From positions 245,862 through 309,861 of the forward strand of contig CAWJTV010000001.1 of NCBI GenBank assembly GCA_963845755.1: a DNA stretch of 64,000 nt, in the 5' to 3' direction. How positions within the stretch are numbered: position 1 is the stretch's first letter; each line of letters opens with the position of its first letter. Made by a program: the position numbers and the translations under genes. Below are positions 37,355 through 41,319 of this stretch, one piece after another. This DNA comes from an uncultured Planctomycetota bacterium (GTDB taxonomy: Bacteria > Planctomycetota > Planctomycetia > Isosphaerales > Isosphaeraceae). The notes beneath the pieces were generated by a model. The model had not been told where the DNA came from, made no database searches, and saw only the letters and a list, made by a program, of their open reading frames with translations.

Positions 37355-37534
37355 TGGAGAGGAGCGAGCCTGTGGCCGGTTTCTCAATCGGTATATAATT
37401 ATAGATGAATAATTACAATTGTATAGATTTACGTGTACAGGAGGCATCCTCTCGATCGCCGCGGCATCCCTTCCCGACCAACGACCTCCCAGGTAATATG
37501 GAGGAGTGGGACGGTGAGAAAGGAGAGAGGGGCC

Positions 37535-37840
37535 GTGGAAGTTTCTGTCATCATCGAGCCGATTACCGGCAGCGGGTATCGCGCGACCGGGGCCGGCGGG
37601 CTCTCGGTCGGCCTGACCGCTGACGGAGCGACGGCCGCAGAAGCCATCGACCGACTGGCCGACCAGGTCCGGCTCCGCGTGAACGCCGGGGCCAGATTGG
37701 CCGAGTTGAACGTCGCTGGCGGCATCGCACCCTGGAAGCAGGATGCCGGATACTTGCACGACGATCCCCTCTATGAACCCTGGCGCGCCGCGATGGAGGA
37801 ATACCGTCATCAACTCGACGAAGACCCCGAGGCGCTATGA
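37535..37840 (+). CDS. Putative antitoxin (HicB-like N-terminus)
   Basis: VSVIIEP..GSGYRA....LTADGATAAEAI pattern; GTG start with RBS; ATGA overlap with VapC. Confidence 0.65.
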   Translation: MEVSVIIEPITGSGYRATGAGGLSVGLTADGATAAEAIDRLADQVRLRVNAGARLAELNVAGGIAPWKQDAGYLHDDPLYEPWRAAMEEYRHQLDEDPEAL

Positions 37841-38256
37841 GCCTCTTCGTCCTCGATACCGACCACCTGACTCTCTATTACCACGGCGACCCGATCGTCG
37901 TTCAGAGGGTCAACTCGAGGCTACACACGGAGTTGGCGATCTCGGTCTTGACGGTCGATGAGCAACTCACGGGTTGGTACACGCTGATGCGGCAAGCCCG
38001 CCGTCCGGAAGAAGTCGCACGGGCCTACGTGCATCTCGGCGAAGCCGTCGTGCGTCTGGGCCGCTGGCGCATCCTGCCCTACACGGAAGCGGCCATCGCG
38101 CGGGTCGCTCAGCTCAAGGCCCTCCGGTTGAACGTTCGGCTCATGGACCTGCGGATCGCCGCCGTTGCGATGGAGAATCAAGCTGTGGTCGTCACCCGCA
38201 ACCGACGCGACTTCGGCCGTGTTCCCGGCCTGAGCGTCGAGGATTGGTCGGTTTGA
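37837..38256 (+). CDS. vapC: VapC-family PIN toxin
   Basis: FVLDTDHLT, TVDEQ, MDLRIAAVA, VVTRNRRDFGRVPGLSVEDW. Confidence 0.9.
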   Translation: MSLFVLDTDHLTLYYHGDPIVVQRVNSRLHTELAISVLTVDEQLTGWYTLMRQARRPEEVARAYVHLGEAVVRLGRWRILPYTEAAIARVAQLKALRLNVRLMDLRIAAVAMENQAVVVTRNRRDFGRVPGLSVEDWSV

Positions 38257-38498
38257 GCCCCCCGTCCGGGGATTCCGGCGGGGCCCGCCACGGGCCGCCG
38301 TCGCTTCAGGCGGAGTCCCAGCCCGCCGACGCAAACCATCGCGGGCCAGGTCGGGTGTCGCTGCCGAATCTCTCGGAGAGGCCACGCCGAGGAACGGCCA
38401 GCCGGTCCGACGCCACCGAAGGCCATTGAGTCGCGGTGAATTCGGTCGATCCGACCGAAGCTCGCAAGGCGACCGTCCGACGGTTCGGTCGATCCGAA

Positions 38499-38572
38499 TA
38501 TGTGAGCCAATCCGCTCGGGGTGAGCTGGTCATGGGGGCCGCGCTGGACCCCTACGTGCTCCACTCCGAGCG
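38499..38572 (+). repeat. Duplicated internal fragment of mgdA (copy of 33116-33189)
   Basis: 74 bp with 2 mismatches counted by eye. Confidence 0.93.
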
Positions 38573-38603
38573 GGGCGTGAAAAGGGGACGGGGGCGTGAA
38601 AAG

Positions 38604-38885
38604 ACAGCCATGTGGGAATTGGCGTGATGCCGATTTGGGACCTATGTACGGACGATCCCTGTCCCCGCCGAACCGGCGGGTTTTACAGATGTCGTTTGAT
38701 GGCCAATCCCGACCAGGGGCCACCTCGGTCTCGTCAGGGATCACGTCTCGCCATACTGGTTTATCAGGGGAGTGACCCCACACAGCCTTATCCGACGTTG
38801 GTGATCCGAGACAGAGCGCCACGCTTTTCCACGGCTTTGCGCCTTGGGGACAGATTCGACGTTGTTCGGCCCCTGGTCCGGATGG
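38604..38885 (-). ncRNA. Predicted bridge/seek RNA region of the IS110 element
   Basis: About 280-nt non-coding segment downstream of the recombinase with short matches to target and donor junctions on either side of small hairpins; RNA boundaries unknown. Confidence 0.65.
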
Positions 38886-40460
38886 TCACTCTGTGGGATC
38901 AGCCTCCCCTGACTCCGGTGATCTTACCAGGTTCCCCTCCAGTTTGGCCAAGATGGCGGGGAGAATCGTGTCTAGCTGGCGCGGTCCCGTTCCCCGCGAT
39001 TTCGGGACCCGAGCCAGCTCCTCCGCCACAGCGGCCGCTTCCTCACGATGCGCCGTGTGCGGGAGTTGGGCCACTGCGGCGTCGAGGTTTCGCGAGAGCT
39101 GATCAGGTGGAATGATATGCTCAAGAGAAAACCTGATCAGTTTATCGAGGATGGGATCCCGCTGCTGAGCGCAGGGGTGTTGGAAGGTCATCCGACCGGC
39201 TACCATCTGGTAGGCGATCCGGCAGAACCGACCGGCGACCTGGACACGGACGCTACGGGCGTCCTTGCCCCTGAGCCGCCATCCCGCGGCCAGGACCGCG
39301 AAGTGATCATTGCATTTGATCAAGTTATCTGCAATCGTGAGGATGGCGGATCGCAGGTCGCGATTGGCGTGTCGGACCAGCGCGCCGTCGCGACGATCGA
39401 CCTGGTCGCTCTGGTACCGCGAGGGGAACAACCCGGCGCGGCCCGTAATCGCTCGGGCCTTGGTGTAGCGCTCGATCGGCCCCATCTCGCCGGCGAACTC
39501 GGCGGCCGAGACCACGTTGATCCCGACGATGCCCAGCAGGAGCAGGTAGGGCGTCCCGGCCAAGAGCCCGGCCAGGTCACCCTCGACCGCCTGGATGGCT
39601 TGAGCCTTGGCGACCTGGTCGGCGTCGAGCTCCAGGAAGATGCGGTGATGGAGCGACGCCGGTTCCTCGGCCGACGGTGCCGACCGGGCCCAAGCGACGA
39701 TCTTTTCCAGGGTGGACCGATACACTCGGAGGCCGGCCTGTCGAACCTGTTGGCTCAAGCCGGCCAGGCCGATCTGGGCGATCGCCGCGGCCGAGCCGAG
39801 GTCCCTGGCCACCCAGAGGATGGCCGGAGAACCGAAGAGATCGCCGACGCACTTCGAGTATCCTGGCATGAACGATTGAAGATGCTCGAGCATCTGCTGT
39901 TGGAGGACGACTCGCTTTTGCACCGAGGTGCGGCGGTGCCTGGCCAGCAGTTGGAGTCGGGCATAGACCGGGTCGGGTTCGGGCTCCAGCAGGCCGAAGC
40001 CGTTGACGGCGGCGCGGTGGATGGCGGAGAGGTCGGTGTCGTCGGTCTTGTTGCCGGGGTCGGCGGGGAGTCGATACTGCTTGGTGGTGTAAGGATGAAC
40101 GATGCGGACCTCGAACCCCGCCTTGCGGAAGCTGCGCTGGACCGGGCCGTGATAGCGACCGGTGCGCTCGACGACCACGATCACCTCCCGGATGCCGTGC
40201 CGGGCCATGGCCGCGCGAACCGACGTCACGGCGGTCTCGAAGTCGGATCGGTTGTGTTCGACGGTGGTCGGCTCGAGCAGGACTCGGCCGTAGAAGTCGG
40301 CGAACATCATCCGGGAGCGTGCCTTGGCGCAATCGACGCACACCAAGCCGAAGTGCTCCGGTCCGACCGCTTGGACGCGCGGGTGAATGACCCCCCGAGG
40401 CTTATGAAGGGCATGCGGCTGCGACGGGCGACGGTTCTTCGACGGGGACTTGGTAGCCAT
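38886..40460 (-). CDS. IS110 DEDD recombinase/transposase
   Basis: CVDCAK, VERTGRYH, KTDDTD, GINVVSAAEFAGEMG, AGLFPSRYQSD. Confidence 0.92.
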   Translation of the reverse strand: MATKSPSKNRRPSQPHALHKPRGVIHPRVQAVGPEHFGLVCVDCAKARSRMMFADFYGRVLLEPTTVEHNRSDFETAVTSVRAAMARHGIREVIVVVERTGRYHGPVQRSFRKAGFEVRIVHPYTTKQYRLPADPGNKTDDTDLSAIHRAAVNGFGLLEPEPDPVYARLQLLARHRRTSVQKRVVLQQQMLEHLQSFMPGYSKCVGDLFGSPAILWVARDLGSAAAIAQIGLAGLSQQVRQAGLRVYRSTLEKIVAWARSAPSAEEPASLHHRIFLELDADQVAKAQAIQAVEGDLAGLLAGTPYLLLLGIVGINVVSAAEFAGEMGPIERYTKARAITGRAGLFPSRYQSDQVDRRDGALVRHANRDLRSAILTIADNLIKCNDHFAVLAAGWRLRGKDARSVRVQVAGRFCRIAYQMVAGRMTFQHPCAQQRDPILDKLIRFSLEHIIPPDQLSRNLDAAVAQLPHTAHREEAAAVAEELARVPKSRGTGPRQLDTILPAILAKLEGNLVRSPESGEADPTE

Positions 40461-40845
40461 GGAACAGGACCTCCGAATCGAGTTGAGAAGAGACCCAACT
40501 CCCATTCTGGAAGTCTGATCGGGCGTTCAGTAGAAAAGATCCTTGACCCCCCCAGGCCCCCCTGTTGTTGCTGGTCAAGAATCTTTAGTACCTCACTTCG
40601 CCACATACCAGGGGACGGAACGAATTATTGACGTCCATTCCGTCCCCTTTTCATCTGCTCCGTTCTGTCAACTTTTCCTCTGCATCCCCTTATCCTTTGC
40701 CTTGGCTGAGAAGACCGACCAGAACCAGCACCAGGACGGCGCGGTCGATGGCCGCATCCGCAAGGACTGACTACTCACGGGACAGCCGCAAGAGTAGAAT
40801 CATGTCGGGGTTGTACCTGCTCATCGAGGAGCGTCCGCCTGCAGC

Positions 40846-41319
40846 ATGGATATCGTCGGCAAGAGGGGAGAGGCGCTCTTCGGCGCGATCATCACCCGGT
40901 GGTGCGGGGGACAGCAGTGGTTCGATCGGCGCTTCCTGGGCGAGAAGGCCGAAGCGCTCGATTTCGAGGTGACGCTCCTCGGATCGTCCGTCTTTCAGTC
41001 GAATTTCTTCGTACAGGTGAAGGCGACGGCGAAGGCTAAGCGGTATGCGGGCACAGGAATGGGTCGTAAACTGCTCGTCCGGCTGACGGCCGCCGATGCC
41101 AAAAAGCTCGGCAGCATGAAAGTGCCGGCGTATGTCGTCGGAATCGACGTGCTCTCCGGGGTCGCATATATCCAGCACGTCCCGGCGGGAGCCAGGAAGG
41201 GGTTCGTGGGAATCTCTACCCGCCGCTCACTGAACTGCCGGGCCATCAGGAGGATTTGGAATGACGTCGAAGACTTCTGGAAGTCGCGGCCAGTAGGCAT
41301 GACGAAGTCCAGCCTTTGA
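40846..41319 (+). CDS. DUF4365-like PD-(D/E)XK nuclease-fold protein
   Basis: GKRGE..F, LDFEV, FFVQVKAT, PAYVVGID; RBS gaggag upstream. Confidence 0.7.
   Translation: MDIVGKRGEALFGAIITRWCGGQQWFDRRFLGEKAEALDFEVTLLGSSVFQSNFFVQVKATAKAKRYAGTGMGRKLLVRLTAADAKKLGSMKVPAYVVGIDVLSGVAYIQHVPAGARKGFVGISTRRSLNCRAIRRIWNDVEDFWKSRPVGMTKSSL

Follow-up and report, generated by a model that had tools for sequence, protein, structure and literature searches.

A planctomycete IS110-family insertion sequence that very probably uses a bridge RNA encoded downstream of its recombinase gene

Introduction

In the IS110-group element IS621, the bridge RNA has two stem-loops with internal loops, the target-binding one first and the donor-binding one second, and the core is CT (PMC11208160). 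The same source assigns the RNA to the left end for IS110-group elements and to the right end for those of the IS1111 group, describes subterminal repeats of 7 to 17 bp and donor nucleotides often lying in a multiloop for IS1111, and gives bridge RNAs as already predicted for 86 to 93% of catalogued IS110/IS1111 elements. A second account (10.1101/2024.04.26.591405) describes IS1111 members in which, read 5' to 3', the top-strand match precedes the bottom-strand one, an order reversed in the IS110-type element ISEc21; it quotes recombinase lengths of 330 to 350 aa for IS1111 and 315 to 455 aa for IS110, and it mentions some IS110-type elements with a 3' noncoding region. Here, we analyze an insertion sequence in a 64,000-nt stretch of DNA (the window) from an uncultured Planctomycetota bacterium (Isosphaeraceae; GCA_963845755.1, contig CAWJTV010000001.1).

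An initial sequence-only reading of this locus had proposed a recombinase-RNA pair with target, donor, and guide loops. The proposal holds up well: the element very probably works with a bridge (seeker) RNA whose coding region follows the recombinase gene, because guides covary with the flanks and with the element's own ends, the RNA scaffold carries compensatory changes, the fold is IS621-like, and near-identical copies occupy the same target.

Results

Coordinates are those of the window, the element is read on the minus strand throughout, and L-numbers denote the loci compared, WIN being the window copy. The assembly that holds the window comprises 14.27 Mb in 49 contigs, and a BLAST search across it with the element found seven places. 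Four are full copies, 99 to 100% identical (the window copy, one on C34, and a pair on C12 separated by just 24 bp); the remaining three are a 290-bp left-end fragment (L005) and two right-end fragments (92% and 87% identical). The extent of identity among the four full copies sets the limits of the element at 38604 to 40611, or 2008 bp with one CT core counted (left end, 40610 to 40611). Its left end or 5' untranslated region (UTR) of about 150 nt (40461 to 40609) contains two hairpins, the recombinase gene follows at 38886 to 40460 (524 aa plus stop; open reading frame [ORF] 38889 to 40460), and the noncoding DNA downstream of the gene measures 282 nt versus the roughly 150 nt upstream. The halves of a perfect 6-bp subterminal inverted repeat lie at 40601 to 40606 (ATGTGG) and at 38610 to 38615 (CCACAT), the latter within the right-end terminus ..CCACATGGCTGT (38604 to 38615). 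This repeat is altered at both ends in the Singulisphaera lineage (ATGTAG/CTACAT), and in some relatives the subterminal repeats are longer but imperfect.

Read on the element strand, the left junction of the window copy is ..TTCCGTCCC-CT-GGTATGTGG.. and the right junction is ..CACATGGCTGT-CT-TTTCACG.., or, in short form, ..TCCGTCCC-CT-GGTATG.. and ..ATGGCTGT-CT-TTTCAC... The left flank (40612 to 40660) consists of the left target half (..TTCCGTCCC), a 17-nt loop, and the other arm of a palindrome; the right flank (38572 to 38603) consists of the right target half (CT TTTCAC..) and then, 19 nt on, a second, empty target copy. All five left junctions in this genome end (G/C)TCCC before CTGGTATG, and all six right junctions read ATGGCTGT and then CTTTTC(C/A). 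Because these junctions agree, the site can be given as approximately TGTCCC-CT-TTTC(C), with the CT common to site and element. Insertion is in one orientation and without target duplication, and removal restores a continuous site. Scripted excision of 38604 to 40611 left a hairpin whose arms, 16 nt each, match perfectly around a 17-nt loop (DNA fold of -19.6 kcal/mol), exactly as the sequence-only reading had described it; the strings and coordinates quoted there were likewise all found in place.

Three of the four full copies have an open 546-aa frame with a 100% identical protein match, and their DNA is 99.8 to 100% identical at different loci; the fourth, 99% identical, has a 504-aa frame. 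The presence of near-identical copies with open frames at different loci suggests that the lineage has seen transposition recently. The element is an intact IS110-family insertion sequence and is probably active.

Relatives were collected by scanning one genome per species, which gave 58 loci with proteins 44 to 83% identical. Nearly all are planctomycete (Isosphaeraceae-type), including Singulisphaera sp. GP187, whose genome has at least 8 copies of a 60%-identical relative, and Ch08, and 26 of 121 genomes of the window's order had a match at E <= 1e-30. Ten groups are multicopy within a genome, with intercopy identity stopping at CTG(G)TATGTRG on the left and at CATGGCNGT on the right. The CT core in relatives is partly a matter of construction, because the patterns used to find the ends require CT. 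A few relatives (L018, L025, L026, L040, L050, and L057) lie on short contigs in bins labeled Acidobacteriota, Caenibius, Gemmatimonadales, and Opitutales, which could reflect either mis-binning or transfer beyond the planctomycetes.

To read the guides, the last 300 nt of 53 elements were aligned, and four guide segments were taken at the columns of the window's guides. The left target guide, TCTGTCCCC (38846 to 38854), reads in the sense of the left flank plus the core C, so that it would pair with the bottom strand. The right target guide, GGAAAAG (38824 to 38830, with GAAAAG at 38824 to 38829), is the reverse complement of CTTTTCC, i.e., of the core plus the right flank. The left donor guide, AAGGCTGTGT (38780 to 38789), agrees in sense with the right end GGCTGT, and the right donor guide, AAACCAG (38756 to 38762), matches 6 of 7 positions of ATACCAG, the reverse complement of the left end CTGGTAT.

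The left target guide fits the element's own left flank at 7 or more of 8 positions in 31 of 42 elements. Changes of T to A and G to A in this guide, as well as larger ones, follow the flanks, and the variants TGTCCCC, TGACCCC, TTATCCCC, TTCCTCT, and CGTGTCT each adjoin a matching flank; thus, the guide TCCTGACCCC of L061 fits the flank tcctgaccc-C at 10 of 10 positions, and CGTGTCT in L027 adjoins cgtgt-CT. The right target guide matches the right flanks of L002, L003, L004, L006, and L007 at 7 of 7 positions and that of the window copy at 6 of 7, and own-flank matches in relatives run to 6 to 8 nt. At least 20 different right target guides occur among the relatives, pairing over up to 8 nt, among them AGCGAAAG with flank CTTTCGCT (L059), GACAAAG with CTTTGTC (L026 and L051), GGAAAAAG with flank CTTTTTCC (L053), and GGAAAG with CTTTCC (L008). 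Two elements that are 98% identical, L035 and L055, have right target guides CAAAAG and CTAAAG, and their flanks, CTTTTC and CTTTAT, differ by the same change.

The donor guides behave in the same manner with respect to the ends of the element. The variable base of the left donor guide in GGCNGT equals the right-end base in 51 of 52 elements (T/T in 22, A/A in 15, G/G in 14), the exception being one copy with a single change. Lineage D (L016, L017, L018, and L041) has the right donor guide ATTTCAG where the others have an ATACCAG-like one, and its left end reads CTGAAAT, not CTGGTAT (L016, L017, and L041; the left end of L018 was not found). In this lineage, too, the right target guide AGAGAAG matches CTTCTCT and the left target guide TTCCTCT matches ttcct-CT. 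Changes in the pairing sense also distinguish the sister elements L035/L055, WIN/L008/L012, L046/L044, L026/L057, and L059/L014. In 20000 shuffles of the flank sets among the guide classes, scores as high as the observed one came up 7 times (left target), 0 times (right target), 15 times (right end), and 893 times (left end), figures that are not probabilities because related elements are not independent. The sequence-only reading had allowed that matches this short could partly be chance, and it had proposed looking for covariation with the flanks. A single copy could not have settled the matter, but the matches exceed chance because the other copies and about 50 relatives agree, their guides changing together with flanks and ends.

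The predicted core of the RNA (38707 to 38880) has, in both the minimum free energy and the consensus fold, an outer stem P1 (38868 to 38876 with 38713 to 38721) around a target-binding and a donor-binding arm; the fold of the single sequence and the consensus fold of 24 trimmed sequences agree on this architecture. RNAalifold applied to the whole 282-nt tail performed poorly, giving long-range pairs to the right-end terminus, and the trimmed core was used instead. Arm 1 consists of a closing stem CGUC/GGCG, an internal loop with the left and right target guides, and a cap GGC-N-GCC. In the window this cap is the apical hairpin GGC-GCAAA-GCC (38833 to 38843), whose GGC/GCC stem is kept in 23 to 24 of 24 sequences, L007 having GAC/GTC. 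Arm 2 consists of a long stem (38801 to 38817 with 38723 to 38744), again CGUC/GGCG, an internal loop with the left and right donor guides, and a GGGG/CCCC cap. The latter, the apical hairpin GGGG-TCACT-CCCC (38767 to 38779), is paired in 23 to 24 of 24 sequences and gives no covariation information because it is invariant.

Over the 36 pairs of the scaffold, 94.8% of cells are paired in the tool's own alignment, versus 41 to 51% when the partner is slid by 1 to 3 columns, and 11 of the 36 pairs show compensatory two-sided change, a level that 0 of 500 shuffles attained. A third conserved hairpin, CCCGCCG-GTT-CGGCGGG (38664 to 38680), lies in the 3' tail without a U tract after it. It forms in 21 of 24 aligned segments, counted by reading the folds (L008, L032, and L057 fold otherwise), it has at least seven different stem sequences, counted by eye, and it covaries among relatives. 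A covariance model built on the core structure picked out eight places in the genome. Six are the four full copies and the two right-end fragments; of the others, one is a new right-end remnant that belongs to a second subfamily (C34:350349-350520, 152.6 bits), and one is a weak match.

The recombinase matches Pfam families PF01548 (DEDD_Tnp_IS110; 6.5e-20, 71.9 bits versus a cutoff of 29) and PF02371 (Transposase_20; 9.6e-11, 42.4 bits versus a cutoff of 21.3). Its DEDD residues D43, E98, D140, and D143 and its Tnp-domain serine S351 are invariant in 15 relatives. A phmmer search against PDB sequences found IS621 (1.7e-05) and ISCro4, the aligned part including NKTDxxD and AGLxPxRYxS; the stretches around E98, D140, D143, and S351 align to IS621, with RYQS351 opposite RYES, and the residue after the catalytic serine is D352 rather than G. 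With an AlphaFold model (15 relatives; predicted local distance difference test score [pLDDT] of 76.4), the top 10 Foldseek matches in the PDB are all IS621 or ISCro4 chains (E of 7.5e-10 to 2.4e-08, TM score of 0.59 to 0.63 on the target). The best is IS621 (8wt9/8wt6; E of 7.5e-10, TM score of 0.60 on the target), at 16% identity over the fold alignment. Next come Nop5/Nop56/58 proteins, which fits the link between IS110 recombinases and Nop5-type proteins reported in 10.1101/2024.06.21.599552. The protein has a large helical insert at about residues 200 to 300 and conserved extensions at the N terminus (HKPxGxxHPRV) and the C terminus (GPxxLGxILPxVLAKLG..SGExDPT), the latter modeled at low confidence. 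The ESM Atlas holds several clusters of IS110-domain proteins of 521 to 536 aa, mostly from Planctomycetota. A tblastn search against plasmids gave six distant actinobacterial and Alicyclobacillus IS110 genes (23 to 31% identity), which are of no help for classification.

Public sequencing runs each covered a small share of the stretch (<=0.20). From a soil metatranscriptome came one 165-nt contig, identical to 38734 to 38898, that covers both loops and nothing else of 2401 nt. We regard it as a weak hint of transcription, because neither strand nor ends can be read from a contig and RNA libraries may be contaminated by DNA. Two soil DNA runs have their highest summed depth at 38724 to 38885, which fits many relatives sharing a conserved scaffold. 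The right end-left end joint and the empty site were not among the contigs, whose cover is partial, so that this says nothing either way. One terminator-like site was found on the plus strand at 40232 to 40250, inside the ORF coordinates and opposite to the gene. The RNA fold of the 5' UTR (-62.2 kcal/mol, z of -3.67) was equaled by 0 of 200 shuffles. Its first hairpin (40573 to 40586 with 40535 to 40548) is also present in relatives, and its second covers the GGAGG ribosome-binding site (40470 to 40474), a sign that translation may be controlled here.

In nature, the element prefers to insert at the outer end of an arm (GAAAAGGGGAC-R-K-AACGAAT) of a dispersed palindromic repeat. Exact GTCCCCTTTTC occurs at 12 sites in the genome versus 5.6 expected from composition, and several of these have AATTCGTT(A/C)(T/C)G directly before. 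The palindrome-arm pattern GGGGA[CT][GA][GT]AAC has 68 genome matches, about half of which (by eye) are the fuller form GAAAAGGGGAC..AACGAAT, and at least four loci have inverted pairs of the arm motif around 40- to 60-nt loops. Because the site sits beside an arm motif that is dispersed and often in inverted pairs, the element appears to aim at the outer end of this repeat. The sequence-only reading had placed the insertion in a REP-like (repetitive extragenic palindrome) sequence and had suggested looking for other copies in the same palindrome. The dispersed and often inverted motif bears this out in part, but a long perfect palindrome surrounds only one of the four full copies, that of the window, and the feature common to all copies is the 11- to 13-nt site itself. 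The left-end-only fragment L005 also adjoins such a palindrome motif. The repeat is thus REP-like in a loose sense only, a likeness only partly shown, and its family is modest in size.

Several target sites have features of their own. A target-bearing segment of 15 to 36 nt is tandemly repeated beside the insertion, leaving an empty second site, in the window copy (38572 to 38603), L004, L008, L021, L033, and L045; such a repeat adjoins 6 of 46 insertions versus 2 of 32 empty TCCCCTTTTC sites, numbers too small to decide whether the element itself produces the repeat. On C12 (184458-188494), the full copies L003 and L004 stand in tandem with one 24-bp target unit between them and a third, empty unit after the second copy. 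At L033, the empty neighboring target copies read ..GGCCC-TT-GTC.., and the occupied copy has CT at both junctions, which may represent insertion into a TT-core site. L009 and L011 are copies of an 83%-identical relative in AGATCAGA(C)-CT-TAC(A/C)C, which fits their target loop (cognate site CTGACCC-CT-TTCC) only if the register is shifted, so that these insertions may be off-target. Right-end scraps of a second subfamily (..cccaaaaccatcatggcagg then CTTTT) adjoin TCCCCTTTTC sites at G000 C17:9699 and C42:27039.

Right-end-only remnants, which recall the solo ssr9 copies of ISPpu9, lie at G000 C29:192258-192564 (L006/L100), C18:17030-17298 (L007/L102), C34:350349-350520 (L101), and C17:28223-28369 (L103). 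They keep a complete or near-complete RNA module (168.8, 103.4, 152.6, and 28.5 bits, respectively) without an adjoining recombinase gene. At least five decayed right-end remnants are present in the genome; there is one left-end-only fragment (L005). L006 and L007 have the left target guide CTGACCCC in place of CTGTCCCC, whereas their donor loop is identical to that of the active copies. The idea that such orphan guides lie behind insertions in this genome was rejected: TGACCCCTTTTC occurs 0 times, and all four full copies lack that flank. At L006, the remnant's break point is bordered by three 17-mers GACCCCGGGTCCCCGCC, two of them in direct tandem and the first lying 6 nt upstream.

Just upstream of the insertion site lies a PIN-domain ORF (37837 to 38253, plus strand; PF01850, 4.2e-06), preceded by an overlapping small ORF without a Pfam match (region 37433 to 38253). 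Together, they are probably a VapBC-type toxin-antitoxin pair.

Discussion

Our analysis establishes the anatomy of the element, its protein domains and fold, the common target, and the covariation both between guides and DNA and within the scaffold. In the mechanism we propose on this basis, the RNA would fold as a three-way junction. The 5' side of the arm 1 loop (TCTGTCCCC) repeats the left target half plus the core C, and the 3' side (GGAAAAG) complements the core plus the right target half; arm 2 has the same geometry for the element's own ends, with AAGGCTGT for the right end GGCTGT and AACCAG for the left end CTGGT. As in IS621, ISEc21, and similar elements, a DEDD/serine recombinase tetramer would hold the RNA and match a TGTCCC-CT-TTTC(C) site with the joined element ends in a circle, itself assumed by analogy, that has been excised or copied out. 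Strands would be exchanged at the shared CT, by a chemistry modeled on the same systems, and the outcome would be insertion in one orientation without target duplication.

Much of this resembles IS621 and ISCro4 as described (PMC11208160; 8WT6-8WT9 and 9T56). The recombinase shares with them a DEDD RuvC-like domain, a coiled coil, a Tnp domain, and an aligned serine. With IS621, the element shares the CT core, two internal-loop stem-loops with the target loop first, a variable target loop beside a conserved donor loop, and a natural site in a palindromic repeat; in ISEc21 as in IS621, each loop's 5' side pairs with the bottom strand and its 3' side with the top strand. In contrast to IS621, the RNA lies downstream of the gene and not in the left end (the left-end hairpins here were not searched for guide-like matches), the two arms are joined in a three-way junction by an outer stem, with a further hairpin after it, and the subterminal repeat is 6 bp rather than 2 to 3 bp. 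The protein is also larger than that of IS621, at 524 aa versus 326 to 341 aa, with its helical insert and conserved terminal extensions, is only 16% identical to it over the fold alignment, and has D in place of G after the serine. The IS110-type exceptions with a 3' noncoding region likewise combine IS110 features with a downstream region. ISPpu9 of Pseudomonas putida (PMC12288879) offers a further parallel as an IS110 element in REPs with a small-RNA gene downstream and extra solo RNA copies. There, however, Ssr9 is reported not to be required for transposition, whereas the downstream RNA of the present element carries covarying guides.

Several points weigh against a bridge RNA. The flanks of the window copy fit its own guides imperfectly (left target guide, 8 of 9; right donor guide, 6 of 7), and the fit of guide to site is poor in L009 and L011 (both in AGATCAGA(C)-CT-TAC), in L014, on the left side of L026, and in L057. 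The nonindependence of related elements detracts from the permutations, so that the sister-pair changes carry the argument, and the left-end permutation test depends mainly on one lineage. In relatives, independent confirmation of the CT core came only by eye in the multicopy groups. The single-sequence fold beats shuffles by a modest margin only (z of -1.88), an Rfam scan of 38300 to 40900 at E <= 1 returned no family, and a promoter/terminator scan found 0 sigma-70-like promoters, although that consensus may not suit planctomycetes. The recombinase reaches 118.9 bits with the NCBIfam IS110 model NF033542 (residues 40 to 421), below its cutoff of 140; that cutoff is a naming threshold and not a mechanistic feature, and the protein is a divergent IS110 member. 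Finally, the 165-nt contig occurs in two equal-sized metatranscriptome runs that are possibly one data set, and no circle junction, excision, or defined RNA end comes from an experiment or a read, the reads being represented by assembled contigs of partial cover.

How the element should be classified is a related question. We consider it possible, but as yet only tentatively, that the clade constitutes a distinct third layout of bridge recombinase, characterized by a 3' IS621-type two-loop RNA, an outer stem, an extra hairpin, a recombinase larger by about 180 aa, and a natural reprogramming series, with remnants (L006, L007, and L101) that might supply guides in trans or be moved as RNA-only modules.

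It is rather unlikely that the element is a true member of the IS1111 group with an IS1111-type seeker RNA. The sequence-only reading had implied an IS1111-type element, and the position of the RNA does agree: the long noncoding region (282 versus about 150 nt) and the guide RNA lie downstream of the recombinase, as reported for IS1111 seekRNA elements such as ISEc11, ISPa11, and ISKpn4. Like that group, it has a subterminal inverted repeat (ATGTGG/CCACAT), which changes on both ends in relatives, and inserts in a site- and orientation-specific manner. However, some IS110-type elements also have a 3' noncoding region, and the polarity of the loops is the wrong way around, the order of strand matches being that of ISEc21 and IS621 (IS110 group). 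The donor guides lie in a simple internal loop rather than a multiloop, the 6-bp repeat falls below the quoted 7 to 17 bp, and the 524-aa recombinase is about 180 aa longer than the quoted 330 to 350 aa. We would therefore file the element in the IS110 family in the broad sense, with a presumably IS621-like way of working.

A different objection is that the copies are intact-looking relics that are no longer mobile, e.g., because the RNA is silent or host factors are missing. The at least five decayed right-end remnants would suit such a history, as would the lack of a circle junction or an empty-site polymorphism among the partial-cover contigs. We nevertheless consider it improbable, given that three of four copies keep open 546-aa frames at near-complete DNA identity in different loci. 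That the site is chosen by the protein or by right-end DNA sites, with the guides being conserved DNA that resembles a conserved target, is very improbable indeed: although target and ends are alike across the family (TCCC-CT-TTT; GGCNGT/CTGGTAT), so that some guide match is expected by descent, and although permuted classes still score 3.2 to 5.1 of 7, the observed matches lie above the permutations, the changes between sister elements are complementary as pairing predicts, the stems around the guides have compensatory changes typical of a folded single strand, and a sense copy 5' plus a complement 3' in both loops is not what such a model predicts.

The mechanism by which a bridge RNA directs recombination is already established, and a bridge RNA in this element therefore extends known biology rather than changing it. 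What is added is a planctomycete IS110-family branch that has not been described before; our literature search, assessed by title and opening lines of the abstract, turned up no account of this clade. Bridge recombinases are being turned into programmable tools with which DNA can be inserted, excised, and inverted, an effort for which new orthologues that differ in RNA layout and guide length are wanted. In the genome studied here, the element accounts for a 2-kb repeat and several right-end scraps. More broadly, the clade offers an intact multicopy element with readable loops, together with dozens of relatives, retargeted in nature, from which the changeable loop positions can be read.

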